Origin: an uncultured Oscillospiraceae bacterium
GTDB lineage: Bacteria; Bacillota; Clostridia; Oscillospirales; Ruminococcaceae
Assembly: GCA_964370565.1 (NCBI GenBank)
Contig: CAYJJR010000001.1
Span: 982 to 64,981, forward strand
Direction: 5' to 3'
Length of the DNA: 64,000 bases
The stretch's first letter is position 1. Each line of letters begins with the position of its first letter. The notes beneath the pieces were generated by a model. It had not been told where the DNA came from. It saw only the letters and a program-made list of their open reading frames with translations, and searched no databases. Below, piece by piece: positions 27,333-53,557 of this stretch. The position numbers were made by a program, and so were the translations under genes.

Positions 27333-27348
27333 ATTTTAAGTGAATAAT

Positions 27349-27381
27349 TACTGCAACACCGCATTTTTCGGTGTTGCAGTT
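27349..27381 (+). terminator. Hairpin between infB and rbfA (attenuator/partial terminator)
   Basis: ctgcaacaccg-catttttc-ggtgttgcag followed by ttgtatt. Confidence 0.5.
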
Positions 27382-27407
27382 GTATTAACAAAAAGGAGGA
27401 AACTTAA

Positions 27408-31249: not shown

Positions 31250-33358
31250 ATGTTTGAAAATTTTAAAACGTTTGAAACAACCGTTTCAGGCAGACCGTTT
31301 AAGGTCGAAGTTGGTAAGATGGCGGGGCTTGCAAACGGCTCTTGCTTGGTTCGCTTTGGCGAAACTGTAGTTTTATGTGTTGCCACGATGGCGGCAAAAC
31401 CTAGGGATGGAATAGATTTTTTCCCGCTATCGGTAGATTTTGAGGAAAAACTATATTCTGTTGGAAGAATTCCGGGAAGCTTTATAAGACGCGAATCACG
31501 CCCTAGCGAAAAAGCTATCTTAACTTCACGTGTTGTTGACAGACAAATCCGTCCGCTTTTCCCAAGCGACATGAGAAACGACGTTTCGGTCGTTATGTCG
31601 GTTTTGGCGGTGGAACAAGACAACAGCCCCGAAGTTGCCGGAATGATAGGAACTTCAATTGCTCTTTCGATTTCGGATATTCCGTGGCAAGGTCCCCTTG
31701 CGGGCGTTGCGGCAGGGCTTGTGGACGGCGAGATTGTTGTTAACCCCAACCTTGAACAAAGAGAAAAAAGCGACCTTCAACTAACCGTTGCAGCAAGCGA
31801 ACAAAAAGTTGTAATGATCGAAGCCGGCGCAAACCAAGTGGACGAAACTACGATGTTCGACGCTATAGTTAAATGCCACGACGAATGCAAAAACATCATC
31901 ACATTCATAAACTCGATAGTTGCCGAGATAGGAAAACCCAAAAAAGAATTTGAAAGCAAAGTCGTTATCCCGGAACTTTACGAAGCTGTTAAAGAAATAG
32001 CTATCGAAAAAGTTCGTGTTGCAATGGACACAGACGACAAAACGGTTCGTGACGCGGCGCTCGCGCCAATATACGAAGAAGTTCATGCAAAACTCGATGA
32101 AAGTTGGCCCGACAACATCGGAATGATCGAAGAATGTATGTACAAACTTCAAAAATACGTTGTTCGCCGTTGGTTGCTCGACGACAACAAACGTGTGGAC
32201 GGCAGAGGGATTGACGAAGTTCGTCCTCTCGACGCCGAAGTTGGCATGATACCAATAGTTCACGGTAGCGGTATGTTCACAAGGGGTCAAACACAGGTTA
32301 TGACTATCGTAACTCTTGGAATGAACAGCGACGCGCAACTTCTAGACGGTATTGACCTTGACACAGAAAAAAGATATATGCATCAATATAACTTCCCTAG
32401 TTATTCTGTCGGCGAAACACGCCCGAGCAGAGGTCCCGGAAGACGCGAAATAGGCCACGGAGCACTTGCCGAAAAAGCTTTGGTTCCTGTGCTTCCAACT
32501 ATCGAAGAATTCCCGTATGTAATGCGTTTGGTTTCCGAAGTTCTTTCGTCCAACGGTTCGACATCACAAGGCGCAATCTGTGGTTCGACGCTTGCGCTAA
32601 TGGACGCCGGCGTTCCAATAAAAGCTCCTGTTGCAGGAATTTCGTGTGGTCTCATAACCGAGGGCGACAGATTTATGACGATGGTAGATATCCAAGGTGT
32701 TGAAGACTTCTTCGGCGACATGGACTTTAAAGTCGGAGGAACACACAAAGGTATTACAGCAATTCAAATGGACATCAAAACAGACGGTTTGACATACGAA
32801 GTTATCAAAGAAGCTTTGGAAAAATGCCGCACAGCAAGACTTCACATTCTTGACGACGTAATGCTTAAAGAGATAGCAGAGCCCAGAGCCGAGCTTTCAA
32901 AACATGCTCCTAAGATGAAATCTATCAAGATCGAAGTGGACAAGATCTCCGAAGTTATCGGAAAAGGCGGAAAGACTATCCAAAAGATCTGCGCCGAATG
33001 CAACGTTAAGGTTGATGTACAAGAAGACGGAACTGTTTTCGTCTCGAGCATCGATAGCGAAGATGTTGAAAGAGCGTTGACAATCATCGAAACTATCGTA
33101 AAAGAACCCGAAATAGGTTCGATGTTCTACGGTAAAGTAACAAGAATTCTTCCTATTGGCGCAATGGTTGAAATTGCTCCGGGAAAAGAAGGGCTTGTTC
33201 ACATAAGCAAACTTGACAACAAACGTGTCGAAAAGACCGAAGATATCGTGGCAATAGGCGACGTTATCCCTGTTAAGATTATAAAAATTGACGACAGAGG
33301 AAGGCTTGACCTTTCGAGAAAAGACGCACTGGCTGCAATTAATGCGAAAACGGAATAG
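31250..33358 (+). CDS. pnp: Polyribonucleotide nucleotidyltransferase (PNPase)
   Basis: 702 aa with two RNase PH domains and C-terminal KH (ISEVIGKGGKTIQKI) and S1 (GKVTRILPIGAMVEIAPGKEGLVHIS) domains. Confidence 0.96.
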   Translation: MFENFKTFETTVSGRPFKVEVGKMAGLANGSCLVRFGETVVLCVATMAAKPRDGIDFFPLSVDFEEKLYSVGRIPGSFIRRESRPSEKAILTSRVVDRQIRPLFPSDMRNDVSVVMSVLAVEQDNSPEVAGMIGTSIALSISDIPWQGPLAGVAAGLVDGEIVVNPNLEQREKSDLQLTVAASEQKVVMIEAGANQVDETTMFDAIVKCHDECKNIITFINSIVAEIGKPKKEFESKVVIPELYEAVKEIAIEKVRVAMDTDDKTVRDAALAPIYEEVHAKLDESWPDNIGMIEECMYKLQKYVVRRWLLDDNKRVDGRGIDEVRPLDAEVGMIPIVHGSGMFTRGQTQVMTIVTLGMNSDAQLLDGIDLDTEKRYMHQYNFPSYSVGETRPSRGPGRREIGHGALAEKALVPVLPTIEEFPYVMRLVSEVLSSNGSTSQGAICGSTLALMDAGVPIKAPVAGISCGLITEGDRFMTMVDIQGVEDFFGDMDFKVGGTHKGITAIQMDIKTDGLTYEVIKEALEKCRTARLHILDDVMLKEIAEPRAELSKHAPKMKSIKIEVDKISEVIGKGGKTIQKICAECNVKVDVQEDGTVFVSSIDSEDVERALTIIETIVKEPEIGSMFYGKVTRILPIGAMVEIAPGKEGLVHISKLDNKRVEKTEDIVAIGDVIPVKIIKIDDRGRLDLSRKDALAAINAKTE

Positions 33359-33414
33359 GTTTTTTAATGCGTAATTCGTAATGCGTAATTCGTAATTTAC
33401 GTCGTTCTGGGGAG

Positions 33415-33446
33415 CGATCTTGCGCCACTTGCATGGCGAGATTTTG
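33415..33446 (+). terminator. Candidate pnp terminator
   Basis: gatct-tg-cgcca-cttgca-tggcg-agatt followed by ttg. The stem is bulged and the T-run short. Confidence 0.35.
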
Positions 33447-33569
33447 ATACATTGTTTTCAAGATTTAATTGCTTACAGATATAATACGAAAAAGTATTCT
33501 TTTCTGACAAAAGGAACGCTACAGGACAACGTGCAAGAAAATCACACTTACCCAGATATAACAAAATAA

Positions 33570-33643
33570 TGTAGGGACAGGGCTTGCCCCTGTCCGATTA
33601 AGAGAGATTTTTTTAATCGGACAACCGCAAGGGTTGTCCCTAC
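33570..33643 (+). repeat. Compound palindrome with four GGACA/TGTCC segments
   Basis: gtagggacaggg-cttg-cccctgtcc gattaa-gagagattttt-ttaatc ggacaacc-gcaag-ggttgtccctac. Three local hairpins are possible, or alternative long-range pairings. Confidence 0.8.
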
Positions 33644-33685
33644 AATTTATTTTATAAAAAAATTCTTTACAACAAAGGAGATATT

Positions 33686-34375
33686 ATGCCTAAAACAGCA
33701 GTCATAACCGGAGCTTCCGACGGGCTTGGAAAACAACTCGCGATAATGCTTTATGAAAAGGGCTATAACCTTGCCTTGTGTGGTCGAAACAAAGACAAGA
33801 TGCTAGACGTTGTACAAGGATTTGACAAACAAAGGGTGTACACCGAGTGTTTTGATATGTTGTCCGAAAGCGATATTAAAAAGTTTTGTAACAATGTCAA
33901 ACAACGTGGGGATATCGATATATTGATAAACAACGCCGGATTTAATCCGAAAAAATCCTCCGTTTTGGACATCGACATACAAGATGTCAGAAACATGTTA
34001 GAGGTTAACTGTATAAGCCATGTTTTGATGATAAAAGAATTGTTGCCTGTTTTTCTTGCAAAAAAAAGCGGACAGATTATAAATGTGCTTTCAAGTTGTT
34101 GCCTTTTCAACAACCCGACAATGTCGGGCTACACCGCAAGCAAAAACGCCATGAAAAGCTTTAACGATATACTGTCAAAAGAGGTTAAAGACCAAGGAAT
34201 AAAGGTTCTTGGGGTATACCCCGGAGGAATAGACACCGCTTTTCGCGAGGTATCAAGGCCCGATTACATGAGCGCAAAAACCGTTGCAAAAGCTATTATC
34301 AACGCTATTGAACTGCCGGACGACGGATATATGCAAGAGTTGGTGCTGCGCCCGCCTTGCGAAAACAACTATTAA
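33686..34375 (+). CDS. SDR family oxidoreductase
   Basis: 229 aa with the TGASDGLG cofactor motif, NNAG, and the catalytic YTASKNAMKS (YxxxK). Confidence 0.82.
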   Translation: MPKTAVITGASDGLGKQLAIMLYEKGYNLALCGRNKDKMLDVVQGFDKQRVYTECFDMLSESDIKKFCNNVKQRGDIDILINNAGFNPKKSSVLDIDIQDVRNMLEVNCISHVLMIKELLPVFLAKKSGQIINVLSSCCLFNNPTMSGYTASKNAMKSFNDILSKEVKDQGIKVLGVYPGGIDTAFREVSRPDYMSAKTVAKAIINAIELPDDGYMQELVLRPPCENNY

Positions 34376-34407
34376 GTAAATTGTAAAAAAATAAAAGGAA
34401 ATGTATT

Positions 34408-35409
34408 TTGTTAATACTTGGAATTGAAAGTTCTTGTGACGAAACGGCTGTCGCCGTGGTCGAGGACGGACTTATAGTCAAATCAAATATAATTGCCTCA
34501 CAGATACAACGCCACAGGATTTTTGGCGGCGTAGTTCCCGAAGTTGCAAGCAGGCTTCACATCGAGGCGATCTCCCACGTTTGCGACGAAGCGTTAAAGA
34601 CGGCGGGCGTAACGCTCGACGAGATCGACGCAATAGCGGTTACCTTTGCGCCGGGGCTAATTGGCGCGTTGCTTGCAGGGGTTAGTTTTGCGAAAGGCTT
34701 AAGTTTTGCTACGGGCAAACCGCTTATCCCTGTCCATCACCTTCGCGGACACATAGCGTCACTGTATCTTACACATCATGAACTCAAACCGCCGTTTGTC
34801 GCAATGGTGGCGTCGGGTGGACACAGCCATTTAATCTTGGCGAAAGACTACACCGAGTTTGAGATACTCGGAAAAGCGGTGGATGATGCCGCCGGCGAGG
34901 CGTTTGACAAAGTTGCAAGGACGCTAGGGCTTCCGTACCCGGGTGGCGCAGAGATAGCAAGGCTTGCAAAAAACGGAGACAAAGAAAAATTTAAACTTCC
35001 GACACCAACCGTTGGAAACAACCAACTGGACGTTAGCTTTTCGGGACTCAAAACTGCCGTGTTAAACATAGTTAATTCCGCAAACATGAAGGGTGAAACA
35101 CTTGACATCGAGTCGCTTTCCGCCTCGTTCCAACACAAAGTCGTGACGATGCTTGCAACAAGGCTTGTAACAGCGGCGAAAGAGAGAAATGTTTCTGCCG
35201 CCATTTGCGGTGGTGTTTCGGTTAATGACGAGTTCCAAGCTATCGCACAAAGTCTTTGTGACAGCGAGGGTATAAAGCTTTTTATTCCACACAAAAGTTT
35301 TTGCGGAGACAACGCCGCGATGATAGCCGCACAAGGATATTTTGAATATCAAAATAAAAACATAGCGAAAAGCAACCAAAATGCATTTGCGAGGTTGGAG
35401 ATATCCTAA
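34408..35409 (+). CDS. tsaD: tRNA N6-adenosine threonylcarbamoyltransferase
   Basis: 333 aa with LILGIESSCDETAVAVV, HH.RGH and the GGVSVN motifs. TTG start, 7 nt after AAAGGAA. Confidence 0.93.
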   Translation: MLILGIESSCDETAVAVVEDGLIVKSNIIASQIQRHRIFGGVVPEVASRLHIEAISHVCDEALKTAGVTLDEIDAIAVTFAPGLIGALLAGVSFAKGLSFATGKPLIPVHHLRGHIASLYLTHHELKPPFVAMVASGGHSHLILAKDYTEFEILGKAVDDAAGEAFDKVARTLGLPYPGGAEIARLAKNGDKEKFKLPTPTVGNNQLDVSFSGLKTAVLNIVNSANMKGETLDIESLSASFQHKVVTMLATRLVTAAKERNVSAAICGGVSVNDEFQAIAQSLCDSEGIKLFIPHKSFCGDNAAMIAAQGYFEYQNKNIAKSNQNAFARLEIS

Positions 35410-35503: not shown

Positions 35504-35588
35504 CGTGGTTTCATGCCAAGATTAGATAGTTTTCAACAGGTTTTGAACAGGCTTTTCAACAATTTTTTATTAAATATTGAATAAAATC

Positions 35589-35617
35589 TTGAAATTTCAA
35601 AAAAGATTAGCTATAAT
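35589..35617 (+). promoter_or_regulatory. Candidate sigma-A promoter of the giant protein gene
   Basis: TTGAAA (35589-35594), a 17-nt spacer, then TATAAT (35612-35617). Confidence 0.55.
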
Positions 35618-35708
35618 GTAATGTATATCAATATATAAATTTATGTCTTTTTCTAAAGAATACATGCTGAATAATGCTATTTCGAGTAGAGCAAAGGAGA
35701 AAAGAAGA

Positions 35709-38700
35709 ATGAACAAAAGGCTGAACAAGATAGGTGTTATGTTTATAATGCTGGCGGTTGTCGTGATGATTTTTGCGACAACGGCTTTGGCGAACACGGT
35801 GACGGAAGAAATAATAATAAACAAAACATACCCGGGATCTAACGATGTTATTTTAAATTCCCATACGTATGTTAGCTTTTCTGCAACTGTTTTGCCGGCG
35901 ACCGCGACAGACAAAACAGTCAACTGGATTTCAACCGACCCTAATGTTCTTCAACTTCGTGCCGGTTCGGCAAACCCTAGCACTGCTGCGGTTTTTGATG
36001 TTAAAGGACCTGGGGCAACTACGATAATTGCTATGTCTAAAGCCGGAGCTGATACCGTTATTGAAACATATCAAGTTAACGTGGTTGACACAACGATAAC
36101 GGCGGGAAGATATGTTGCTTCTGTTGAACTATTTACCGATTCCACGCTTTCAAATCCAATAACGAACAAAGAGATTTTGGATGATTATTACAGAAAAAGT
36201 TCTGGTGATGATAGCTTTTCTATAGTTTTGAGAGCAAAGTATTCAGATGGAACATCGCTTACATATAACGAAATTGCTCAACTTTTCACTTTTTACTCTA
36301 CCAATTCTTCTAAAATCTATTTCGAGGGATTTACACCGGATTCTAATCCGCTTAATGTAGGGCGTGCAATAGCTCACTTTAGCGTAGAAGATGTTAATGT
36401 CCAGTCAGCATCTTCTTTGTTGTACACATATATATATGATGGATATAATCGTGTTGGACTACAGTTTACTCGCAACGTGGTTGCTCCGTTGACACTAGCT
36501 AAACAAGCAACCGTATCAGGCGACGGACTTTCCGCGACCTATCAGTTTACCCAGGTTCCTTCGCTTATTAATAGCAGTTCCCAATTAGTAAAATCGGCTT
36601 CTAATTTTGCTGCTTCAGATTTTAAAGTTCAATATGAAAGCGCACCAAATGTTTTTGAAGATGATACACATAAAACGGTAACCAACGTTGAGTGGAATTC
36701 TTCTTCAAAAAGCCTTGTATTTACTTTCAATGAAAAGCTTGATGCTGGATTTGACTACCAAGTTGTACCAAAAGCCGGAACCAATGGAATAAACTATGGT
36801 TTTCTTGCCGGCGCATCGTATGTTTATATTGATCATTCTGCCGAACCGAGTTGGTTATCTTTTTCGGCTCCGGGAAATGTAACAGCTTCCAATATAGAGA
36901 TAATTCCTTCAGCCCAATCTGTATATTCTTCAACAGATAACAACAGAATAATGTATGCAACCACAGGAATATCCGGAATATTTACAATTACTGCTAAATC
37001 AGACCTTGCGCCTTCGGCACAGTTTAATATTACAAATTTAGGAACACTTCCAAGTGGAATTTTGTTTTATAGTACCGGCGACGGAAAAACAGCGACTCTT
37101 TACACTTCCAAAAATCTCGCCGCCGGAACATATTATATAGATGTACGTGCACAATATATAGGTGACATGTCGGTCTATGTCGACAAGCGCTTGGAGCTTC
37201 GCGTCGGAGCGCAAGGCACGTTTAGCGTTTCAACCATCACGCTTACAAAATCGACAAGCACAATCCCGGTTATTCAAACAAGTTCACCCGTTCCGGCGGT
37301 TAACGCCGACACTCTCGCGGCAACATATAAATTCTATGGCGGCGCAAGCGTGGACAAGATTGTTCAATCCGTCATAAGCTTAGACGGAACAAAAACGCCG
37401 TATACAGAGACTTTTGAAAATGCGACCCTCACCGAAACAATGAAAAATCAGCTCGCGTCGTCCGCTGGGCTTGTTTTGCCGTACAAAATCGGAACACAAA
37501 CAGGTGGAACACTTGGCAAACTCGACCTTGGCACATATATAATGCGCGTCGAACTGTTCGCCGGCGAAACATCGATTGGCATAACCGAGGTTAGGTTCTC
37601 GGTTGACACGTCGTTTGAGATGTTCGACATAAAATATTCGTCAGGTGCGGGGATAAGGGTTGAAAAACCAAATGCCACTGCCACAGACCTGCCCTTGCAA
37701 ACTTTAACCTACAACGCAACGACCGGCAAATATCAAACTTCCGGAGGTGACGGCGTTGACCGTCGCTCCGCCAACCAATATCAAGAAACCGTTAAAACAG
37801 CCCCCGGTGACACGCTCTTTTTCCAAGTTGCGGTCGACGGATTTAACGTGGGCGACAGAATTAAATTCTATATCGACGACTTTGTTTTCGGTGCAAACAA
37901 AGGCGGTGGATTAACCGCGCAAACAGTCGAGGTTCAAGAAACCGGTTCAGGGTATGCTTTTGTCAAAATCCCGTTCACGATTAGCGACACGACCTATCTT
38001 GGAACGCATGTTGTTCAAATTAAGATGGCGAAAACCCTCGACGGAACAGATACATACGACCATGCAATTAACCTTAAATACGACCTTGAAAGCGAATATC
38101 TAACGACCGAGGTCGAGATATATGACGAGCTTAAAAATGCCACAGGAAAACGTGAGATAAAAATTGACAGCGACTTGCACATTACAAGGACGCTCTTTAT
38201 TCCCGAGGATAGAATTTTGACGCTTGTGACGGGCAACACGCTCACAATAGACCCGTTGCGCCACGTAACGGTTTATGGCGAAATCCGCATGGCGGACAAT
38301 GCGCTCAATGCCGGAGGAAACCTTGTCGTTACCGGCAAAGTTGCGCTCGAAGACACAAGTTTAGACCCTGCAGTAGAAGCAAGATACTATTACTATGCAT
38401 CTACCGATGCCTCTGACAACCCGCATCTTTTGATAACCGACGGCTCTAACGTAACAATGAATGGCACACTTGTGGATGGTTACACAAACATGTTGACCGG
38501 CAGCGCGACGATGAAAACGGCAACAATTACAAGATATAATTTTGTAACAGGTGCAGTTTCAGTTCCTGATGCATTGATAGATTTGGTTACAATCGACGCT
38601 AACGACAGCTTTATCCTTGCGCAAGACGGCTCGCAAGTAACGTTGGATTCCGGAAACAGCTTAACCCTTGTTGAGGGCGCAAAACTGACAGTTGGTAAAG

Positions 38701-41700
38701 ATAGCCAATTCATCAACGAAGGCGTTTTAACCACAAACCGCGCAAGCGTCACCAGTAACGGCGATTTGATAACGAGGTTTAATACAGGAACTGCTCAATT
38801 AATATTTAGCGATGTTTCAGCTGAACCGTATATCTCAAGCGATACAGACGATAGGAATAACGAAACAACTCAATTTTTCCTTGGTGGAGCGACTCCGGCT
38901 GACACTGCAGTATATGACAGTGGAGCCAGAACTTTGCCCTATTCGATATCTAATGGTGCGGTTGCTATCTCGGGAACAGACTACAGCAACTTTGACTACA
39001 AAATTTTCGGAAATGTACATATGTATAAAGACCTAAATATAAGGGTTGGTCAAGAACTTTTAATCGAACAAGATTCGTTGCTTTGGATACGTAGCGACGG
39101 CGTAGCAAGTTCAACCGGCTACACCCTTAAACTAGACGGCGAGCTCCACAACAAGGGCGCTTTGTGGGTGGACGGACGTGCATATGGCGACGGAAAATAT
39201 ATCGAATATCTAGACAGCGTCTTAGCCGGAGATGGTTCTATCGAGCTTAACGGAGCGGAAAATGTCCTTGGTGTTATCACGGGCGACGTTAAACTGCAAA
39301 AGAACTCAAGTGGCGGATATATAATAACTATTCCCGAAAACGGAACCGCAAACATAGTTGCCAACTTCAAGATGAACTCGAACGACGACCTGATTGTTGC
39401 CGCCGGAGCAACGCTCACCGTCAACAGCGGAGTGACGTTCGAGGTGGACGGACGTGTGGCTATCGAGCCTTCTAAGATAGATGGAGGATTTAGCTATTCT
39501 TCCGGAACGTTCACCAACAACGGAACGACAACATTTGGGTTTGAGAACACAGGAAATGCAAGTGCTACACTAATGTTTTTCTCTAACCTTGGAACGATGA
39601 ACGGAACGTTTGGGGTAAAATCATCGAATGCACTTAATGCACTAACTATACCAAATGCAGCAGTTAGCTGGCATCCGACAAACGTCGGAAACGACGGAAT
39701 ATCCCCCAACTGCGCAATTGTTCTTACGGGCTCTAACAACACTTTCAGCACCGCAGGAAACTGGGATCTTTCCTATCGCGTTTCAGAGGGTGTCTACGCA
39801 AGCAAAAATATTACCTTTACGGGCACGGGCGACACAACAATTATTTTGACAGGAGCTGTAGGAACTTCACTTGTTTCAACGATGGATAGCCCAACAACAT
39901 CAGCTGATATTAGCAAGCAAACTGCAAAAATCTCTAACATAAGTTTTAGTGGAATTAAATTCTACGGAGGTAGTGCAAGCTATTTATTTGATGTTAGAAA
40001 TGGTGCTTCCTCTTCAGACCTTAGCTTTAAGAATTGTGAATTCTCAACTTTCGGTAGTACAATATTGAGTTTTGGTAAAACTGCTTTGGGAACCGATAAT
40101 GTAACAGGTTTTGAAGTTGCGAATTGTGTATTTAGCGGAACAGGTATTTGGACGAATAAGCTTACAAATTCAAGCATTACAGGAAATACATTTAATAACA
40201 TTCCAAACAACGGATTTGGAATTAACCTTAGTTTCCAAGGCTTGAAAAATTCAAGCGGCACAGACCTCTATATCTCGGGAATTGAACTGAAAGACAATGA
40301 TTTCACAGGTGTTACAGGAGGAACCAACACTACAGGCATATACCTTGGCGGAGAGGCGGGCACTTACATCGGCGAAGTCGAGATAAGCGGAAGTACGTTC
40401 ACAGAGCTTACAACAGGTGTTAACGTCGTAACCCCGATTGTTACAACAAAAACCAACGACCAAATAACGCTTAAAGATCTATTGATAACAACAAGCACGT
40501 TCACAGATTGCGATACAGCAATTTTTGCAGTGAATGCCGATGAAAAGGTTTCAACCGGTGCAAATGCACCAAATGCCTTAACCCCCAACAACCTGCTTGG
40601 AACTATAACTTATGTAAAATGCACGACAAAAGTCAGAGACGACAACAACGTATTCACGTTCCTAGTTACAAGCGAACAAACGCTTAACGATGCGCTTTCG
40701 ATGTCGATAAGCAACATCTCGATGGCGAATAGCTTCGCTATTTCGGGGTCGGTTAATATAGCCAACAAAAACCTAACCGTTCCGTCCGGAATGACGTTGA
40801 CCGTCAACTCAAGCGCGACGCTTCGAACTTCGGGCACGGCACAAGTTAACGTTATAGGAACGATTGCAAACAACGGTGTTCTAAACGTCGGAGGAACTTC
40901 GTTTGGAGGAACCGGACGCGTTAACACCCTTACAACCGGAAGGGTAGACGGAACAAAACCGATTACCATGACGACCGAAACGGTGGGCGGAACTTCGGTT
41001 CGCGGAACTATCGACGGCATATTCTTCGGTGATGTTACGGTGCAAAAGAACACCTCGACCGGAACGTTCGCAATTGGTGTTAAGGAGGACGGCTACGCAA
41101 CGGCAAACGCAAACTACACCTTGCCGGTCGGAAGCAAACTTGTCGGCGGTACTACAACCGGTGGAGATAGCGAATTCTATATAAGCGGAAGCTCTACCAT
41201 AACGGTGTTGGGCGAGGTTGTGGAACAATATAACCACAATTCGCTCCACGGCAACGGAACACTTTCGTTCGCCCCGGGGTCGAAATTGACGAGGACTATC
41301 CCAGCGGGATCGCCTGCACCTCCAGCAAATACTATACAAGCTTCAATAGTCATAGGCGACGGCGGATATCTCGAATTCGACCGTGACATAACTTCAACAA
41401 GGCTTAACAGAAAAGGCGACAACGACGCGGGCTACAGCTATATTTTGGCAAGCGGAAAGATGACGGTCAATGCAGACTCGACATCTACGTCTATTCCATA
41501 CCTTGTCGATGAAAACAATTCGCTTCAAGTTTCCACCGGTGCAAACATAACCGTACCAAGTGATAACACGTTTATCGCAAGCACCAATGGACTTGTTTTC
41601 GCAAACCAAACCGGTTACGGAACACTTATCGGTGTCGACAGGAACTCGAATGCTAATCTATATCTAAATTCAAGCTTTGGCTCGATTACAGGTCCGGATG

Positions 41701-43829
41701 CTTCTGTTACTCCACCAACAACATACGTCTGGGCGGTAGACAAATGGGCGTCAATAGCAACGGTGGCAGGACAAGATGCAACTCCAGCCGGCATCGGAGC
41801 AGCGTTCGCAGGCGGCGCCGAAACGGTCTACTTTGAGCCGACAACTTCAACCACCACAGGCGACCTCTCTGTTCCGGCAGGTAGAAACCTTGTCATTGCA
41901 GAAGGTGAAAAGCTTGTTGTCAGTGCAGGACACACGTTGTATATCAACGGCGATGTCAAGCTTGAAACAAACGCCAATATTACCGGTGCTGCAGGCTCCA
42001 AAATGGAGATTGCGACAGGAAAATCCGTTGTACTTAACGGAGTTACCTACGGCGCTGGAGACTATGTTTGGGATACAACAGATAGTGTTTGGGTAAACAA
42101 TGTCTACGACCAACAATCTTTGACCGCCGCCCTTAAAAACACAACGGTTAAAGTTTCAAGAGCGACTCAATCGTTTGACGTGACAGTTGCGACAACTGTG
42201 CCCAACGGATATGAAATAAGGGTAGACAATACTTTTTCACTTAGAGTAAAAGAAAACATTACATTTACCGTTGCAACTGGTGGAAAGGTTACAGATACGG
42301 ATGGTGTTAATGCCCTAACTGGAGCAACGCATACCTCGCGATTAGTCGTTCAAACCGGCGCGGAAATGGTGCTTAATAATTCGGCAACTGGAACACTAAC
42401 CCCGGGCGTAAACTACGCTTGGAACACTGTACAATCGGCAGACAAATGGACAGCATCTGCTTCGACGGCAGCTGAACTCAAGAAATATCTTGACGCCGCC
42501 GAAGAGGTCATAGCGGTTGCAAACTTTAGCATAACCAACGGAACAACGGTTGGAACAAACCTCTATATCCCGGATGGAATAACGCTTTCCGTGCCTAGCG
42601 GAGGAACGTTGTATGTAGACTCGAAAGATGGTTCAACCAATGATTTGGTTAAAATTAACACAGGTCTAAACGCCGGCAAGATAATTGGCGTTAACACAAG
42701 TTCCAAACTTACAGTTACGGGAACGACTGCAACTCATATCGGCTACGGCGAGGAAGTCGGAAGCTACGCGTGGGTCGGCTCGGGCGCGACTGCAAAATGG
42801 ATGAAGGTGGTCTCGACGTGGAAAGAGGTGGACGATGCACCGGCAACAGATGACATCTACTTCAATCCGTCATTAGCAAATACACCGGTAACCTCTGCAG
42901 CTACTCCAATTGAAGCAAATGTTACGATAGCAACAGGCAAGACTATCACAATATCTTCAGGCGTAAAGCTAACAATAACAGGCGATATAACCCTTGAGGG
43001 TAGCGCAAGAATTATCGGAAGCGATTCAAGTTCTGAGTTGTCATTAACAACAGGAACATATCCGAACTTAACTTCCGGAAGAAACTACGCTTGGTATTCC
43101 AATGCATGGTACAGGCTTTATAATGTAAACGGACTTGGAACGTCTGTTCCATATGGCAGCATTGCTATTGTGGATGGCGGAGATTTAGCGGCTGACACAT
43201 CAGTTGCCGGAACACTTGTTATCCAAAAAGGAGACACCTTGACTATTCCGGCAACAACAACCCTTGAAGTTACGGGATATTTGGTAGATGGTCAAGTAAT
43301 GAGCGCTAATATAACCTCGAGACTACGGCTTTCAAGAACCTATACTCCACAAACAGGAACAGCCTTGGGTGCCGGATGGTATATAGGTGGAACAGCTACC
43401 GGTAGTTGGGCAAAAACCCAGGCAGTGGCAGTTCATGTAGGAGCAAATACTAATTCATATTTTGAGAGTTCAACCGCAACTATCGTGGGAAGTTTTGATA
43501 TTTATAGTGATACTAACGCAGGCGGTTATTATACTGGAGCAAATGTCGGCACGCTTCACATAGCTCCAAGCCCCGGAACAGAGATGGTTTTGAATGGAAC
43601 AATTTCAATATTTGATTCAACAGATGGGATTAATCAGATTAAAATTTATGATGATAATGCTACATCGGCAAATGCAAATACAGGTACTTATCTCCAAGCG
43701 GATAATCCGGATATGAAATTAAAAGGATATAATGAAAACGCACAGATAGTTATTTATGATGTTCTTCATCAAATAACGGCTACTTACAAATGGGATCCAC
43801 CTACAGCAAAATGGACAGTGAGTCCATAA
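35709..43829 (+). CDS. Giant (2,706 aa) secreted Thr/Ser/Gly/Asn-rich repeat protein with Ig-like (Big_2-like) and parallel beta-helix-like regions; putative surface protein/adhesin
   Basis: One uninterrupted ORF. The start is set at ATG 35709 after AGGAGA; the track ORF begins 22 codons earlier. Signal peptide is MNKRLNKIGVMFIMLAVVVMIFATTALA|NT. The Big_2-like segment reads SATVLPATATDKTVNWISTDPNVLQL. The gene has its own promoter and terminator. Confidence 0.85.
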   Translation: MNKRLNKIGVMFIMLAVVVMIFATTALANTVTEEIIINKTYPGSNDVILNSHTYVSFSATVLPATATDKTVNWISTDPNVLQLRAGSANPSTAAVFDVKGPGATTIIAMSKAGADTVIETYQVNVVDTTITAGRYVASVELFTDSTLSNPITNKEILDDYYRKSSGDDSFSIVLRAKYSDGTSLTYNEIAQLFTFYSTNSSKIYFEGFTPDSNPLNVGRAIAHFSVEDVNVQSASSLLYTYIYDGYNRVGLQFTRNVVAPLTLAKQATVSGDGLSATYQFTQVPSLINSSSQLVKSASNFAASDFKVQYESAPNVFEDDTHKTVTNVEWNSSSKSLVFTFNEKLDAGFDYQVVPKAGTNGINYGFLAGASYVYIDHSAEPSWLSFSAPGNVTASNIEIIPSAQSVYSSTDNNRIMYATTGISGIFTITAKSDLAPSAQFNITNLGTLPSGILFYSTGDGKTATLYTSKNLAAGTYYIDVRAQYIGDMSVYVDKRLELRVGAQGTFSVSTITLTKSTSTIPVIQTSSPVPAVNADTLAATYKFYGGASVDKIVQSVISLDGTKTPYTETFENATLTETMKNQLASSAGLVLPYKIGTQTGGTLGKLDLGTYIMRVELFAGETSIGITEVRFSVDTSFEMFDIKYSSGAGIRVEKPNATATDLPLQTLTYNATTGKYQTSGGDGVDRRSANQYQETVKTAPGDTLFFQVAVDGFNVGDRIKFYIDDFVFGANKGGGLTAQTVEVQETGSGYAFVKIPFTISDTTYLGTHVVQIKMAKTLDGTDTYDHAINLKYDLESEYLTTEVEIYDELKNATGKREIKIDSDLHITRTLFIPEDRILTLVTGNTLTIDPLRHVTVYGEIRMADNALNAGGNLVVTGKVALEDTSLDPAVEARYYYYASTDASDNPHLLITDGSNVTMNGTLVDGYTNMLTGSATMKTATITRYNFVTGAVSVPDALIDLVTIDANDSFILAQDGSQVTLDSGNSLTLVEGAKLTVGKDSQFINEGVLTTNRASVTSNGDLITRFNTGTAQLIFSDVSAEPYISSDTDDRNNETTQFFLGGATPADTAVYDSGARTLPYSISNGAVAISGTDYSNFDYKIFGNVHMYKDLNIRVGQELLIEQDSLLWIRSDGVASSTGYTLKLDGELHNKGALWVDGRAYGDGKYIEYLDSVLAGDGSIELNGAENVLGVITGDVKLQKNSSGGYIITIPENGTANIVANFKMNSNDDLIVAAGATLTVNSGVTFEVDGRVAIEPSKIDGGFSYSSGTFTNNGTTTFGFENTGNASATLMFFSNLGTMNGTFGVKSSNALNALTIPNAAVSWHPTNVGNDGISPNCAIVLTGSNNTFSTAGNWDLSYRVSEGVYASKNITFTGTGDTTIILTGAVGTSLVSTMDSPTTSADISKQTAKISNISFSGIKFYGGSASYLFDVRNGASSSDLSFKNCEFSTFGSTILSFGKTALGTDNVTGFEVANCVFSGTGIWTNKLTNSSITGNTFNNIPNNGFGINLSFQGLKNSSGTDLYISGIELKDNDFTGVTGGTNTTGIYLGGEAGTYIGEVEISGSTFTELTTGVNVVTPIVTTKTNDQITLKDLLITTSTFTDCDTAIFAVNADEKVSTGANAPNALTPNNLLGTITYVKCTTKVRDDNNVFTFLVTSEQTLNDALSMSISNISMANSFAISGSVNIANKNLTVPSGMTLTVNSSATLRTSGTAQVNVIGTIANNGVLNVGGTSFGGTGRVNTLTTGRVDGTKPITMTTETVGGTSVRGTIDGIFFGDVTVQKNTSTGTFAIGVKEDGYATANANYTLPVGSKLVGGTTTGGDSEFYISGSSTITVLGEVVEQYNHNSLHGNGTLSFAPGSKLTRTIPAGSPAPPANTIQASIVIGDGGYLEFDRDITSTRLNRKGDNDAGYSYILASGKMTVNADSTSTSIPYLVDENNSLQVSTGANITVPSDNTFIASTNGLVFANQTGYGTLIGVDRNSNANLYLNSSFGSITGPDASVTPPTTYVWAVDKWASIATVAGQDATPAGIGAAFAGGAETVYFEPTTSTTTGDLSVPAGRNLVIAEGEKLVVSAGHTLYINGDVKLETNANITGAAGSKMEIATGKSVVLNGVTYGAGDYVWDTTDSVWVNNVYDQQSLTAALKNTTVKVSRATQSFDVTVATTVPNGYEIRVDNTFSLRVKENITFTVATGGKVTDTDGVNALTGATHTSRLVVQTGAEMVLNNSATGTLTPGVNYAWNTVQSADKWTASASTAAELKKYLDAAEEVIAVANFSITNGTTVGTNLYIPDGITLSVPSGGTLYVDSKDGSTNDLVKINTGLNAGKIIGVNTSSKLTVTGTTATHIGYGEEVGSYAWVGSGATAKWMKVVSTWKEVDDAPATDDIYFNPSLANTPVTSAATPIEANVTIATGKTITISSGVKLTITGDITLEGSARIIGSDSSSELSLTTGTYPNLTSGRNYAWYSNAWYRLYNVNGLGTSVPYGSIAIVDGGDLAADTSVAGTLVIQKGDTLTIPATTTLEVTGYLVDGQVMSANITSRLRLSRTYTPQTGTALGAGWYIGGTATGSWAKTQAVAVHVGANTNSYFESSTATIVGSFDIYSDTNAGGYYTGANVGTLHIAPSPGTEMVLNGTISIFDSTDGINQIKIYDDNATSANANTGTYLQADNPDMKLKGYNENAQIVIYDVLHQITATYKWDPPTAKWTVSP

Positions 43830-43848
43830 TCCCCAAATTTTAGATTAA

Positions 43849-43879
43849 CCCCCTCGCCCTTAAAAGCGAGGGGGTTTTA
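43849..43879 (+). terminator. Rho-independent terminator of the giant gene
   Basis: ccccctcgc-ccttaaaa-gcgaggggg followed by tttta. Confidence 0.8.
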
Positions 43880-43985
43880 CCTTTGCAAAAAAACCTGTAG
43901 AAAAACTTCGGTTTATTATGCTATAATATAACCATAGCGCAACTAATTTCTACCATGAAAAACCACCGAAAAGGAGACCTTGAAC

Positions 43986-45872
43986 ATGAAAGGATATATG
44001 AACAAGATAGCTCTTGTGGATCTTTCGACACAGCTTGTTTCCGACTACTTTGTTTCGGACAAAGACCGAAAACTCTTTTTGGGCGGCAAAAGCCTTGCGG
44101 CAAAGATTATATACGACAATATTGTGGACAAGATAGACCCGTTTTCGGCGGAAAACCTTGTCGTTATAACAACCTCTCCGTTGACAGGGTCGACCGCGCC
44201 TTGTTCCTCGCGTTTTAATGTCTCGACAATATCTCCGTTAACCGGGCTTTTGACGTCAAGTAACTGTGGCGGAAATTTCGGCATATTTCTTAAAAAGGCG
44301 GGTTTTGACGGACTTGTTATAAAAGGCAAAGCGCAAAGCCCTGTTTTGCTTGAGGTTACAAACGACACAATAGTTTTTAAAGATGCCGCGAACCTTTGGG
44401 GCAAAAAGACGGGCGAAACGGAACAACTTATAGGTGGGAAAAATAATGGGAAGTTTGTTATAGGCCCTGCGGGGGAAAACCTTGTGCTGTATGCCGGCGT
44501 TTTTTCCAACGAACGTGCCGCCGGAAGGGGCGGTGTCGGCGCGGTTTTCGGAAGCAAAAACCTTAAAGGACTTGTTGCCGAGGGAACAAATTCCGTTGCT
44601 TTTCATGATAAAGAAAAGTTTAAAAAATTAAATAAAAAATGGATTTCAATACTTAAAAAACATCCGTTGACGGGTGGACAGCTTCCGACTTATGGAACGG
44701 CGGGGCTTGTTACCCCGATGAATTTCAGAAATCTTCTTGCGACGAAAAACTATAAATACGGAAGCTATGACAAGTTCGAGGACATAAGCGGCGAGACGCT
44801 GACCGAAAAACATCTTGTCAAAAACAAAGGTTGTATGTCGTGTCCAATCCATTGCGCGCGGGTTGTCACGGTTCACGGCAAACAGGTTAAAGGTCCCGAA
44901 GTTGAGACAATTACCCTTTTTGGAAGCAACATGTTAAACAACAACATGAAAGCAATTTTGCACATAAACCACCTTGCGGACGAATACGGGCTTGATACGA
45001 TAAGTATGGGGTCGACAATTGCATTTGCAATGGAGCTTAACGAAAAAGGTTTGTGGAACTCGGGGTTGAACTTTGGCGACATGACAAACATAGAAAGAAC
45101 TATCGAAAACATAGCCTATCGTAAAGGGATAGGCGACCTTTTGGCGGACGGAACAAAACGTCTTGCGGACAAGTTTGGCGGCAAGGAATACGCGATTAAC
45201 GTCAAGGGTATGGAACTTGCGGCGTATGAACCGCGCGGAGCACAGGGAATGGGTTTAAGCTATGCGACGGCAAACAGGGGCGGTTGCCACCTCAACGGCG
45301 GTTACATGGTCGTGCTCGAGGGGTTGGGGCTTGATCTCTCGGGTAAAACCACCAAAGGCAAGGCGGCATTCTCGATATTTTTTCAAGACCTTATGGAGGC
45401 GGTGTCGTCGGGGGGAAGTTGCCTTTTCACGACATATGCCGTGCTTCCGGGATATTTGATTTCAAACCCAAACGCGTTTATCTCGAAAACAGTAAACAAA
45501 ATTGCGCCGTTTTTTGGCGGAGTGATAGCGCTTGCGCACAAATTTCCGTGGATATTATCGCTTAACATACCGGCTATGATCCCACATTCGGTTATGATTA
45601 ACCACCTAACCGGAATGAAGTTAACAATCGGTTCGCTTAAAAAAACAGGCGAGAGAGGGTATAACCTCGAGAGGATTATAAATTTAAGGCTTGGAATGAC
45701 GGGGGAACAGGACACGTTGCCAAAACGTTTGATTAAAGATCTTCAAAGACAGGACGATAAAACAAGCGTTGTAAAACTTTCCGAAATGCTGCCGCAATAC
45801 TACGCCATAAGAGGTTGGGACAAAAACGGAGTTCCAACACAAAAGACTCTTAAAAAGTTGGGGTTAGAATGA
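43986..45872 (+). CDS. aor: Aldehyde:ferredoxin oxidoreductase (tungsten/molybdopterin AOR family)
   Basis: About 628 aa. It has the N-terminal MKGYMNKIALVDLS...GG..LAAKI pattern, the [4Fe-4S] Cys motif region KGCMSCPIHCAR and AOR-family length. ATG 43986 lies 8 nt after AGGAGA. Confidence 0.88.
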   Translation: MKGYMNKIALVDLSTQLVSDYFVSDKDRKLFLGGKSLAAKIIYDNIVDKIDPFSAENLVVITTSPLTGSTAPCSSRFNVSTISPLTGLLTSSNCGGNFGIFLKKAGFDGLVIKGKAQSPVLLEVTNDTIVFKDAANLWGKKTGETEQLIGGKNNGKFVIGPAGENLVLYAGVFSNERAAGRGGVGAVFGSKNLKGLVAEGTNSVAFHDKEKFKKLNKKWISILKKHPLTGGQLPTYGTAGLVTPMNFRNLLATKNYKYGSYDKFEDISGETLTEKHLVKNKGCMSCPIHCARVVTVHGKQVKGPEVETITLFGSNMLNNNMKAILHINHLADEYGLDTISMGSTIAFAMELNEKGLWNSGLNFGDMTNIERTIENIAYRKGIGDLLADGTKRLADKFGGKEYAINVKGMELAAYEPRGAQGMGLSYATANRGGCHLNGGYMVVLEGLGLDLSGKTTKGKAAFSIFFQDLMEAVSSGGSCLFTTYAVLPGYLISNPNAFISKTVNKIAPFFGGVIALAHKFPWILSLNIPAMIPHSVMINHLTGMKLTIGSLKKTGERGYNLERIINLRLGMTGEQDTLPKRLIKDLQRQDDKTSVVKLSEMLPQYYAIRGWDKNGVPTQKTLKKLGLE

Positions 45873-50656: not shown

Positions 50657-51880
50657 CTATGATGCTTGAAGCGTAACCGGAACAACCATCATTTTGTTGT
50701 CACGGATAATCTGGATTTCGACGATGTCGCCGGGCGTTTTTGTTGCAAGATATGATGTCAAGTCAACGATGTATTCGATTACGTTTCCGTCTATGCTCAC
50801 AACGTAATCGCCGATTTCGAGGCCGGCTTTTTCGGCGGCAGAGCCGTTTTCTATTACATAGAGATAGACGCCGTATTTTGTTACGTCGTATTGATAGGCG
50901 GTTTCGTCGTCCCAAATTTCAATGACTTGAACGCCAAGCACAGCTTTGTTTGTGCTGGTGCCGTTTTCGAGGATATCTTGTGCGAGTTCTCTTGCGTGGT
51001 TAATCGGTATTGCAAAACCTATGCCCTCGATAGCATATCCGCCGGATTTTGCGGTCACTATTGCGATAAGTTCGCCGTTCATGTTAAATAGCCCTCCGCC
51101 CGAGTTGCCAAGGTTTACGGCGGCTGTGGTTTGTATCAGAGTGAATTGTTGGTTGTCGATAGCAACCTCTCTCGCAAGACCGCTTATTATTCCTTCAGAA
51201 ACCGAGCCGCCAAACTCTCCGAGAGAGTTTCCGACAGCAATAACGTCTTCGCCAACAACCAACGTGTCCGAGTCTCCGTAGACTGCGGGGGAAAGCCCTG
51301 TTTCGTCTATCTTTATAACAGCGATGTCGTTAGCTTCGTCGCCACCGATTAATTCGGCCGAGTATTCGGTTCCGTCATAGAGCTTAACAATAAGGTCGCT
51401 TCCGCCACCTGCGACATGCATGTTTGTTATTATATATCCGTCTTCGCTTATTATAACGCCGCTACCCGCGCCAACCGGCACAGTTTGGTTGAAAAATCCT
51501 CCCGTTACAGATTGTTCGATAGAAATTTCCACAACGCTAGGTGACGTAATCTGTGACACTTCGGCTATCGTGCCTTTTGAAGAAAGCGAGACGGGGGATT
51601 GTTGATCTGCCGTTTCGTACAAGACGACGCTTGCGGAGTTTGAAAATATCGTGACAGCAAGAAAGGCGCCAATAAATCCGCTTAAAAGTGAAACAGAGAT
51701 AAAGCCGAATATAAGCCATCCTTTTTTTTGCCCTTTTTTCTTTCGCGCTTTGTAGGATAAATATTCCTGTTCATATGGAGTTAGGGGTGGGGAACTTTCG
51801 GCGGTATATTCGACAGAAGATGTCGAAACCGATTCGCTTGTGCTATCTAACTCGGTTTGATTATTGTTAATGTCATTCAT
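50657..51880 (-). CDS. htrA: HtrA/DegP family serine protease with PDZ domain
   Basis: 407 aa with an N-terminal membrane anchor, the catalytic triad contexts ITNMHVAGG, NDIAVIKID and GNSGGGLFN, and a C-terminal PDZ domain. Confidence 0.88.
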   Translation of the reverse strand: MNDINNNQTELDSTSESVSTSSVEYTAESSPPLTPYEQEYLSYKARKKKGQKKGWLIFGFISVSLLSGFIGAFLAVTIFSNSASVVLYETADQQSPVSLSSKGTIAEVSQITSPSVVEISIEQSVTGGFFNQTVPVGAGSGVIISEDGYIITNMHVAGGGSDLIVKLYDGTEYSAELIGGDEANDIAVIKIDETGLSPAVYGDSDTLVVGEDVIAVGNSLGEFGGSVSEGIISGLAREVAIDNQQFTLIQTTAAVNLGNSGGGLFNMNGELIAIVTAKSGGYAIEGIGFAIPINHARELAQDILENGTSTNKAVLGVQVIEIWDDETAYQYDVTKYGVYLYVIENGSAAEKAGLEIGDYVVSIDGNVIEYIVDLTSYLATKTPGDIVEIQIIRDNKMMVVPVTLQAS

Positions 51881-53353: not shown

Positions 53354-53502
53354 TTAATAATTAATTCATTAAAAGAGGTTATAATAGAAATAAGCTTCAC
53401 CTACGGTGAAGCTATTGGAAATACTCGTTGCCTTGTTTCACTTGGCATTTTGCATCGATGGTGCAAAAACGCAGTATTTCTTGTGTTTCAAGCTACAGCT
53501 AA

Positions 53503-53540
53503 TAGAAATAATCCGCAGGATTATTTCTATTTCTATTTAT
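53503..53540 (+). terminator. Hairpin plus T-rich tract after the hexokinase gene
   Basis: tagaaataatcc-gca-ggattatttcta followed by tttctatttat. A second hairpin, agcttcacc-tac-ggtgaagct, lies at 53393-53413. Confidence 0.45.
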
Positions 53541-53557
53541 CTGGTAAGATTAACTTG

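Follow-up and report, generated by a model that had tools for sequence, protein, structure and literature searches.

The window analyzed here, a 64,000-nucleotide stretch from an uncultured Oscillospiraceae bacterium (contig CAYJJR010000001.1, positions 982 to 64,981), carries between tsaD and aor one giant gene for a protein of 2,706 amino acids (aa), and the questions it raises are whether the gene is genuine and, if so, what a protein of this size is built from and what it might do. Comparison with orthologues established that the giant gene is real and under purifying selection. Giant β-solenoid surface proteins are a well-known kind; what appears to be new, as far as sequence comparison can tell, is a selected protein of this length without a curated domain, whose main building block is an unannotated module of about 110 residues shared across phyla. 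We lean towards regarding the protein as a fibre-like component of the cell surface.

35709..43829 (+): coding sequence of the giant protein, 2,706 aa plus stop, assigned from the stop-free open reading frame (ORF), its orthologues and a ratio of nonsynonymous to synonymous substitution rates (dN/dS) of 0.21

The reading frame is open over 35643..43829 (+) with no internal stop. When 5.8 billion proteins were searched, the only matches were the protein's own record (P0001) and one relative, P0002, the 2,710-aa orthologue at a locus designated L001, which shares 54% identity with the window protein in the best local alignment and 57% over the full length. This orthologue belongs to a metagenome-assembled genome (MAG) labelled 'uncultured Faecalibacterium sp.' and lies directly after a short-chain dehydrogenase gene (adh_short) and tsaD. 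A third copy, at the locus L003 of another MAG, was reached via its near-identical PNPase and occupies the same position after tsaD; it was called as 2,734 aa from an upstream ATG and is 64% identical to the window protein. All comparisons of the giant gene with L003 cover 2,551 codons, with the last ~180 codons and the downstream neighbours lying outside. No relative beyond the MAG of L001 was found in a scan of genome contigs, and none was found when metagenome contigs and viral contigs were scanned with the best-conserved block of the protein.

We take the gene to be real because its orthologues are intact and in the same place, because its dN/dS is 0.21, and because its codon usage is native (r = 0.915 for relative codon frequencies against six conserved, mostly housekeeping, genes of the window). 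The idea that it is a chance ORF, a repeat misassembly or a decaying pseudogene could draw on the fact that it is known from three genomes only, all of them draft or metagenome assemblies; we give it a negligible probability. A random ORF of 8.1 kb is vanishingly unlikely, the orthologous ORFs are 57-64% identical and complete from start to stop in two genomes and intact over the 2,551 codons in L003, and the promoter, the ribosome-binding site and an upstream cis element (described below) are conserved. The gene contains no DNA repeat longer than 26 nt that could collapse during assembly, which makes disruption by misassembly of repeats unlikely. The orthologue comparison thus refutes a non-gene reading.

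Selection on the gene was compared with that on its upstream neighbours. The values for window versus L003, with dN and dS as nonsynonymous and synonymous substitutions per site, are as follows.

PNPase: aa identity 99.7%, dN 0.002, dS 0.43, dN/dS 0.005
ribF: dN 0.058, dS 0.57, dN/dS 0.10
adh_short: aa identity 88%, dN 0.071, dS 0.95, dN/dS 0.075
TsaD: aa identity 90%, dN 0.061, dS 0.83, dN/dS 0.073
giant gene: aa identity 64%, dN 0.29, dS 1.3, dN/dS 0.21

The amino-acid divergence of the giant gene is 4-100 times that of these neighbours, and it is unevenly distributed. Along the gene, dN/dS is 0.11-0.16 at residues 601-900, 1651-1800 and in some other 150-codon windows and reaches its highest values, 0.39-0.43, at residues 151-450. 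Identity to L003 per 100 aa follows a mosaic pattern from 35% to 91%, with the peak of 91% at residues 701-800, and identity to L001 drops to 33% over residues 2601-2700 and to 16% over the last six residues.

These comparisons indicate a gene that is lineage-specific, fast-evolving, core-like and conserved in position rather than a strain-specific insertion. An earlier note on this DNA, made by inspection, had called the locus clearly accessory; that description does not hold, given the same position after tsaD in three genomes, the native codons and the dN/dS of 0.21. The same note had described the gene as richer in GC than the flanking intergenic DNA, which is correct (44.6% versus 24%), but the coding neighbours have the same GC content (41-48%) and the contrast is therefore trivial. 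Recent horizontal acquisition was rejected on GC content, codon usage and conserved synteny.

What the protein is built from did not emerge from its alignment to itself: self-BLASTP found no internal repeat at E<1e-3, the copies being too diverged, and profile methods were needed. Cutting the chain at a Y-x-W...W motif gives units of about 100-135 aa on a common pattern, with a helix-like xxLxxAL start, the stretch (I/V)PxGxTLTVxxGxTLxVxG, an xSSxL strand and a closing GxYxW...W. A profile hidden Markov model (HMM) built from 55 modules of 42 foreign proteins, hereafter the foreign-module HMM, was used to score the units. The copies from residue 1656 onwards are listed below.

40674..41267 (+): module-like units at aa 1656-1744 and ~1777-1853, the first scoring 21.3 bits with the foreign-module HMM, the second found with the iterated in-family HMM only
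41388..41747 (+): C-terminal module 1, aa 1894-2013, ending YVWAVDKW; 22.3 bits
41760..42098 (+): C-terminal module 2, aa 2018-2130, ending YVWDTTDSVW; 52.8 bits
42111..42449 (+): C-terminal module 3, aa 2135-2247, ending YAWNTVQSADKW; 37.0 bits
42450..42800 (+): C-terminal module 4, aa 2248-2364, ending YAWVGSGATAKW; from profile analysis, and the module modelled with AlphaFold2
42810..43109 (+): C-terminal module 5, aa 2368-2467, ending YAWYSNAW; 36.4 bits
43122..43415 (+): C-terminal module 6, aa 2472-2569, ending GWYIGGTATGSW; 31.7 bits
43422..43814 (+): C-terminal module 7, aa 2572-2702, divergent, ending YKWDPPTAKW four residues before the stop

The foreign-module HMM assigned 229 bits to the window protein, compared with a maximum of 4.1 bits in 200 shuffles, and resolved nine domains scoring 21-53 bits, namely all C-terminal units but the last and the units at residues 803-901, 1205-1274 and 1656-1744. 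The seven C-terminal modules that had been seen by eye are thereby confirmed, with the correction that at least three further copies lie upstream, at about the three places just named. Of these, the units at residues 803-901 and 1205-1274 score 24.2 and 27.6 bits, where shuffled sequences reach 10.6 at most. With an iterated profile, the first half of the module is also recognised at residues ~811-863, 971-1015, 1201-1254, 1659-1718 and 1777-1853. The remaining C-terminal unit, module 7, is the least conserved part of the protein, and the foreign-module HMM matches only its C-terminal motif (residues 2670-2703; 0.6 bits). Module copies are 16-29% identical to one another, whereas module 4 is 50-55% identical to its orthologous copy. 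Each copy is far closer to its orthologous copy than to its sister copies, which argues that the duplications are ancient and that concerted evolution has not taken place.

Beyond the three orthologues, a profile of 14 modules was compared exhaustively with 1.84 billion cluster representatives, which identified 131 proteins with E<=1e-3; E fell to 1e-10 or below for 16 of them and to 1e-30 or below for 2. Judged by plain pattern rules, the N-terminus resembles a signal peptide in 85 of these proteins, a lipobox-like motif is present in 33, and 34 close with [YF]xW..W. Pfam searches of 50 module-bearing proteins returned no match over the module itself; the co-occurring domains were SLH (6 proteins), G8 (4), Flg_new (3) and LRR_5, fn3, NosD and Pectate_lyase_5 (1 each). 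Named members of the family are few, come from MAGs of Spirochaetaceae and Bacteroidales, and are all annotated 'hypothetical protein', and a general literature search on giant genes found no paper about this family. The suspicion voiced in the earlier note, that the protein may contain undescribed repeat families, is thus well supported by a module that recurs in 131 clusters. The family appears to span secreted proteins and lipoproteins of Bacillota, Spirochaetota and Bacteroidota.

The relatives offer a view of where the module sits. Two SLH-bearing relatives are stand-alone genes without partner genes, one surrounded by housekeeping genes (dnaA-dnaN-recF to one side, with gyrB further along) and the other between transposase fragments. 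Relatives with SLH domains or a lipid anchor carry that anchor at the N-terminus and the module distal to it, which argues that the module is the exposed working part and not the anchor. Eight small hits (P0019, P0024, P0061, P0064, P0070, P0081, P0104 and P0129; 147 to ~770 aa, some fragment-like, one from a Spirochaetaceae MAG) have a lipobox at or near the start, a W[YF]xGLG motif and one module, and look like a distinct small-lipoprotein family on the same module.

We entertain tentatively the possibility that the module is an undescribed extracellular domain family that crosses phyla and has a function of its own, with the window protein, at ~10-12 copies, as its largest known array. That function, which we put forward just as tentatively, could be that of a glycan- or surface-binding unit, or of a C-terminal element for folding, release or retention of Sec-exported proteins. 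The proposal is prompted by the module closing the chain in 34 of 131 relatives, as judged by a simple pattern rule, by its presence in three phyla (named members from Spirochaetaceae and Bacteroidales MAGs, and the window lineage in Bacillota), and by the lack of any match to it in Pfam, NCBIfam or PADLOC and of any significant match in PHROGs, the PDB or BFVD; novelty is judged against these six resources, and AlphaFold DB or InterPro may hold an equivalent entry.

The structure of one module could be predicted with confidence. AlphaFold2, given module 4 (residues 2250-2364) with a 49-sequence alignment, returned a model with a predicted local distance difference test score (pLDDT) of 82.5 and a predicted template modelling score of 0.76, in which a helix opens the unit, roughly eight short strands follow, and one last short strand falls on the Y-x-W motif. 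Because the strands in the secondary-structure string are spaced 7-8 residues apart, we infer a miniature right-handed β-helix of about two coils, capped by a helix at the N-terminal end and by aromatic residues at the C-terminal end. For this model Foldseek identified nothing significant: E was 2.4 at best in the PDB and 0.22 at best in BFVD. Right-handed β-helices make up nearly all of the weak PDB matches, which include the CAP C-terminal domain, pectate lyase, PL6 lyases, tailspikes, the IcsA autochaperone and the serine-rich repeat protein (SRRP) of Limosilactobacillus reuteri.

At the level of sequence, the module profile weakly matched gp22, the tail fibre of crAss001 (whole-sequence E 2.6e-5, per-domain E 3.5-500), and a gp5/VgrG-like spike β-helix (E 3.4e-4, with one marginal stretch at E 5e-4). 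A common origin of the module with either protein was considered and set aside, the per-domain values being weak and the matches being read as shared β-helix periodicity. Together with the C-terminal ~150 aa, the least conserved in the protein, these matches are what would speak for a delivery or competition device, that is, a polymorphic toxin, a contact-dependent effector or a domesticated phage tail-fibre-like protein whose variable C-terminus is the active or receptor-binding tip. We rate this as very improbable: apart from the weakness of the matches, the region contains no toxin, immunity or phage genes, a scan of IMG/VR with the best-conserved block gave no relative, and the protein ends in one more member of the module family and not in a separate toxin domain. 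Phage tailspikes and tail fibres such as the HK620 tailspike and crAss001 gp22 do resemble the giant protein in their β-helix periodicity, their weak profile and fold matches and their variable distal end, but the giant gene has no phage context, and its product has a Sec signal peptide and gives no indication of forming trimers. PADLOC gave no hit for the giant protein, and PHROGs gave only weak N-terminal matches, the best being phrog_215, 'structural protein with Ig domain' (residues 55-126, E 7.6e-5). On these results phage-structural and defence readings were dropped.

Upstream of the C-terminal modules, the chain is mapped as follows.

35805..36089 (+): immunoglobulin (Ig)-like, Big_2-like domain, aa ~33-127, from sub-threshold Pfam Big_2 and PHROGs phrog_215
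36090..37628 (+): β-rich region, aa ~128-640, with no family hit, holding the stretch of highest dN/dS
37776..38093 (+): β-sandwich resembling a carbohydrate-binding module (CBM), aa ~690-795, the best-conserved part of the protein, with sub-threshold CBM_6
38115..39698 (+): β-rich region read as β-helix, aa ~803-1330, with module-like units and an all-β, low-confidence AlphaFold2 model
39906..40658 (+): putative PbH1-type right-handed parallel β-helix repeats, aa ~1400-1650, from a pattern scan

Neither Pfam nor NCBIfam gave a hit on the full-length protein. Pfam was also run on ten overlapping 420-aa tiles with a maximum E of 10 (HMMER filters drop most matches above ~0.1), and no match rose above threshold; no Beta_helix, NosD or catalytic family was reported. 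The domains beyond the first ~150 residues are therefore not assignable to curated families, in line with the earlier note. For the N-terminal segment, the Ig-like nature that had been proposed stands (phrog_215), while its attribution to Big_2 falls short of the Pfam threshold: PF02368 matches residues 47-118 with 18.3 bits (E 2.3e-3), below the 22.8-bit gathering score, when the first 420 aa are searched alone, and not at all in the full-length search. Weak PDB profile matches of the N-terminal 640 aa to filamin and antibody Ig folds (E 0.05) were found, and residues ~128-640 are probably several Ig-like sandwiches. The CBM-like assignment comes from CBM_6 (PF03422), which matches residues 713-776 with 15.6 bits (E 0.02) over profile positions 57-111 only, short of its gathering score of 28.9. 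The following β-rich region contains the two module-like units (residues 803-901 and 1205-1274) as well as two partial ones (976-1010 and 1098-1152). At least five xxIxNCxF-type coils lie at residues 1438-1598 (LSFKNCEF, FEVANCVF, IELKDNDF, VEISGSTF and LLITTSTF among the PbH1-type coils), the PbH1 region contains four of the five cysteines, with the fifth, C1335, just upstream, and PDB profile searches gave a marginal match to an LH3 β-helix protein at residues ~1443-1521 (E 0.066-0.23). An AlphaFold2 model of residues 630-1829 from a two-sequence alignment was all-β with a pLDDT of 42.8, and only residues ~1409-1609, the PbH1 section, reached 50-84; its Foldseek matches, all at E > 1e-3, were Hbp, pertactin, the HK620 tailspike, PL6 lyases and Ig and CBM sandwiches.

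A putative β-helix in one chain with a CBM-like sandwich raises the alternative that the protein is a secreted polysaccharide-active enzyme, in which a β-helix lyase or hydrolase would be targeted by the sandwich and the modules would act as spacers or binding units. The PbH1-type coils with most of the cysteines, the sub-threshold CBM_6 in the best-conserved block, and the weak fold matches to PL6 alginate lyases, pectate lyase and tailspikes all fit such an enzyme, as do NosD in one module-bearing relative, Pectate_lyase_5 in another, and GH2 and GH3 genes elsewhere in the window. It is nonetheless unlikely in our estimation. Even the most permissive scan, at a maximum E of 10 with most matches above ~0.1 dropped by HMMER filters, reported no Pfam or NCBIfam catalytic family, no lyase or hydrolase was matched by sequence in the PDB, no catalytic residues can be named, the PbH1 block, at 52-64% identity, does not stand out from the rest in conservation, and about 90% of the protein lies outside it.

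How the protein leaves the cell is suggested by its N-terminus.

35709..35792 (+): predicted Sec-type signal peptide, aa 1-28, cleavage ALA|N, the sole hydrophobic segment, with a conserved AXA-type site

The sequence MNKRLNK is followed by 21 hydrophobic residues, the only transmembrane-like segment of the protein, and then by ALA|N; small residues at -1 and -3 of the cleavage site are retained in both orthologues (ALA|N, VFA|S). The mature protein is computed to have 2,678 aa, a mass of 282 kDa and an isoelectric point (pI) of 4.6. Its composition is as strongly biased as had been observed by eye, T, S, G, N, A and V making up 56% of residues and D, E, K and R 15%, with five cysteines. No C-terminal LPXTG motif, lipobox (pattern search) or C-terminal transmembrane segment was found; the sole LPxT[GASN] match, at residue 62, lies inside the Ig-like domain. 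Neither full-length nor tiled scans gave a Pfam match to SLH (PF00395), choline-binding CW_binding_1, CWB2, WxL or GW/SH3b domains, and the Y-x-W...W motif of the module differs from the WxL motif. These pattern searches and Pfam scans agree with the lack of a recognisable anchor reported in the earlier note. A sortase gene is absent from the window. Taken together, the sequence features support a stand-alone, Sec-type secreted protein without a known anchor or partner genes.

Several known systems resemble this arrangement in part. Autotransporter and two-partner secretion (TPS) passengers (pertactin, Hbp, IcsA, FHA) are, like the giant protein, very long and read as single-chain right-handed β-helix fibres, rich in G, T, S, N and V, that project from the cell; the strongest of the weak fold matches include Hbp, pertactin and the IcsA autochaperone. 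The giant protein, however, has no Pfam match to a β-barrel translocator or TPS domain, and no TpsB-like gene is adjacent; the host is apparently a monoderm clostridium, so its export route and anchoring must differ. The giant adhesins of type I secretion systems (T1SS), LapA, SiiE and MpIBP, are alike in being very large, with Ig-like repeats, ligand-binding domains near one end, few cysteines and an acidic pI. Such adhesins have no N-terminal Sec signal; they carry RTX repeats and a C-terminal T1SS signal and are encoded beside ABC transporter, membrane-fusion and TolC genes. The giant protein, in contrast, has a Sec signal, does not match the HemolysinCabind (RTX) Pfam model and is not adjoined by T1SS genes, and whereas T1SS adhesin repeats are near-identical in DNA, its modules are diverged and its gene is free of DNA repeats.

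Among the right-handed β-solenoid adhesins of Gram-positive bacteria, the L. reuteri SRRP is, like the giant protein, a secreted, acidic, Thr/Ser-rich surface protein, and in both the working part is read as a pectate-lyase-like right-handed β-helix; to the binding region of the SRRP (PDB 5ny0) the module gives a weak fold match that is not significant (E 8.4). The SRRP β-helix serves adhesion rather than catalysis. Unlike it, the giant protein lacks serine-rich repeats, LPXTG and accessory SecA2/Y2 genes, and its β-helix is split into many small capped units. The module is also shared with SLH-anchored, S-layer-associated proteins of Bacillota (P0006, P0016 and P0060), which are stand-alone and Sec-dependent with N-terminal SLH domains, but the window protein and its two orthologues have neither SLH nor another recognised wall-binding domain.

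The gene carries its own expression signals.

35529..35561 (+): three direct repeats with an 11-nt period, TTTTCAACAGG / TTTTGAACAGG / CTTTTCAACAA, from Tandem Repeats Finder
35589..35617 (+): sigma-70-type promoter TTGAAA-17-TATAAT, 11/12 consensus matches, the top site of the region in a consensus scan
35693..35699 (+): Shine-Dalgarno (SD) sequence AAAGGAG, 9 nt before ATG 35709, read from the sequence
43847..43876 (+): intrinsic terminator, an 11-bp stem with 8 G-C pairs followed by a T-rich tail

Promoter, SD, signal peptide and terminator, all described in the earlier note along with the intact 8.1-kb ORF, could each be located. The start was assigned to ATG 35709, where GGAG at 35696-35699 stands at a spacing of 9 nt. 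The public protein record P0001 (2,728 aa) begins instead at the in-frame ATG 35643, which adds 22 codons (35643-35708). ATG 35709 is likely the true start; it is preferred because an SD is present there, while ATG 35643 has none and the L001 orthologue does not keep the extra codons. All three loci retain the -10 hexamer and most of the -35 hexamer, and an Rfam scan of the locus, including the 5' untranslated region, gave no match.

The triple repeat lies 28-60 nt upstream of the -35 hexamer. Its 33-nt block is identical in L003 and L001, although the rest of the L001 intergenic DNA has largely diverged, and it is the sole exact match in the window and occurs once per orthologous locus. Direct repeats in helical phase, placed around -70 to -90, are a typical feature of the sites bound by activators such as the response regulators of the OmpR/PhoB family. 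The conservation and placement of the block suggest a candidate binding site for a transcription activator, which by analogy would most simply be an OmpR/PhoB-type response regulator.

Monocistronic organization, a near-consensus promoter, an SD and a strong terminator are also what might be expected if the protein were an S-layer or another self-assembling coat or sheath, abundant and held on the wall by a non-canonical interaction. The composition is S-layer-like too (pI 4.6, 56% T/S/G/N/A/V, almost no cysteine), distant module-bearing proteins carry SLH domains, and the gene diverges far faster than its neighbours between close relatives. Such fast divergence is common for S-layer genes. 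We nevertheless think a coat improbable. At 282 kDa the protein is above the usual size of S-layer proteins, which is roughly 40-200 kDa; it has no SLH, CWB2 or other wall-binding domain; a string of capped β-helix units suggests a rod and not a lattice; and its genome-typical codon usage gives no sign of extreme expression.

The explanation towards which we lean, and which we hold to be somewhat probable, is that of an exported, fibre-like, non-enzymatic surface protein with ligand-binding sandwich and end modules, whose divergence reflects surface exposure. The gene would be transcribed as a single cistron from its near-consensus promoter, probably modulated by a factor on the three phased direct repeats, and its 282-kDa product would be exported by the Sec route as a long, almost wholly β fibre. 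After cleavage at ALA|N, the predicted order is an array of Ig-like sandwiches (the Big_2-like domain, ~500 unassigned residues and the CBM-like sandwich), then a long right-handed β-helix section that includes the PbH1-type coils, and then ~10-12 copies of the ~110-residue module, seven of them in tandem at the C-terminus. Each module would comprise an amphipathic capping helix, about two xTLTVxxG-type coils and a closing hairpin with the Y-x-W...W aromatic motif. As a surface fibre or adhesin without enzymatic activity, the protein would use the CBM-like sandwich and the variable terminal modules to attach to ligands, probably glycans, that are displayed on particles, in host mucus or on other cells, and its fast mosaic divergence would be in keeping with an exposed position where host immunity, phages or competitors exert pressure.

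The wording of the earlier note, an adhesin, surface-layer or fibre-like protein, is consistent with these data. The surface-protein domains carried by distant module proteins (SLH, Flg_new, G8, LRR_5 and fn3) lend it indirect support, as do the fold resemblances, non-significant as they are, to right-handed β-helix adhesins, tailspikes and lyases.

Several points weigh against the surface-fibre explanation. The protein has no known wall or membrane anchor and may be simply released. None of the Ig, CBM and PbH1 assignments reaches a curated threshold, structure is confident for one module only, with the 1,200-aa model at a pLDDT of 42.8, and the β-helix fibre picture is drawn from sequence patterns and fold matches that are not significant (E > 1e-3). 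The PbH1 section may have a catalytic role. The envelope is presumed to be monoderm from a Clostridia-like gene content and from the label 'uncultured Faecalibacterium sp.' of the closest public record, and a response-regulator gene was not found in the window. From the patterns described above we accordingly infer that the protein is shaped as a fibre, binds ligands and stays on the cell, and which regulator acts on its gene.

The surroundings of the gene bear on whether it works with partners. Upstream lie ribF, pnp, adh_short and tsaD, and downstream lie aor (aldehyde:ferredoxin oxidoreductase), a ThiS-like gene and an Fe-alcohol dehydrogenase gene. No secretion, sortase, glycosylation or chaperone gene is adjacent, and the absence of partner genes stated earlier is confirmed, the genes on either side being adh_short-tsaD and aor-ThiS-FeADH. 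The nearest genes for general quality control of secreted proteins are two that lie further downstream, at 7-10 kb: an HtrA-type protease (Trypsin_2 plus PDZ) at 50657-51880 (-) and a PrsA/SurA-like peptidyl-prolyl isomerase at 53450-54586 (+). HtrA and the PrsA-like foldase are plausible helpers of the giant protein.

Presence after tsaD in two related MAGs is accompanied by a different downstream gene in L001. Synteny ends right after the giant gene (window 43830-45872 versus L001 10952-14700): the window continues with aor, the ThiS-like gene, Fe-alcohol dehydrogenase, DUF1292 and a ThiF-like gene, whereas L001 continues with DUF1858, TrmK, NFACT and rplS. The differing gene orders mark the giant gene as a rearrangement boundary. 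On the upstream side, divergence from L003 is uneven (window 31250-35409 versus L003 10001-14221), PNPase being 99.7% identical with a dS of 0.43 and the dehydrogenase and tsaD 88-90% identical with a dS of 0.83-0.95, which suggests recombination mosaicism between the two genomes. L003 also has at 5501-6179, in the infB-rbfA interval (window 27333-27392), an insertion of ~0.6 kb with a DUF4160 gene and a gene for 96 aa, absent from the window; the pair is possibly toxin-antitoxin-like.

Elsewhere in the window, the ORFs at 6782-8491 (+; 569 aa) and 8565-9671 (-; 368 aa) have no Pfam match at E<=0.01, and that at 55243-56238 (-; 331 aa) has none at E<=1e-5. The ORF at 20228-20998 (+; 256 aa) has an N_methyl motif (E 4e-7), is type IV pilin- or pseudopilin-like, and could represent another surface structure of the organism.

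Surface proteins mediate the contact of uncultured gut Clostridia with mucus, dietary particles, phages and neighbours and are almost wholly uncharacterised. The module described here turns up again in lipoproteins and SLH-anchored proteins from three phyla or more, without an annotation in any of them. A structure of the module and the identity of its ligand would give a name and a testable function to more than 100 'hypothetical' surface proteins, and a defined module would be a new building block among bacterial adhesin domains. The conserved triple repeat, as a candidate operator, would in turn offer a handle on the regulator, and hence on the signal, that governs the production of so costly a protein.

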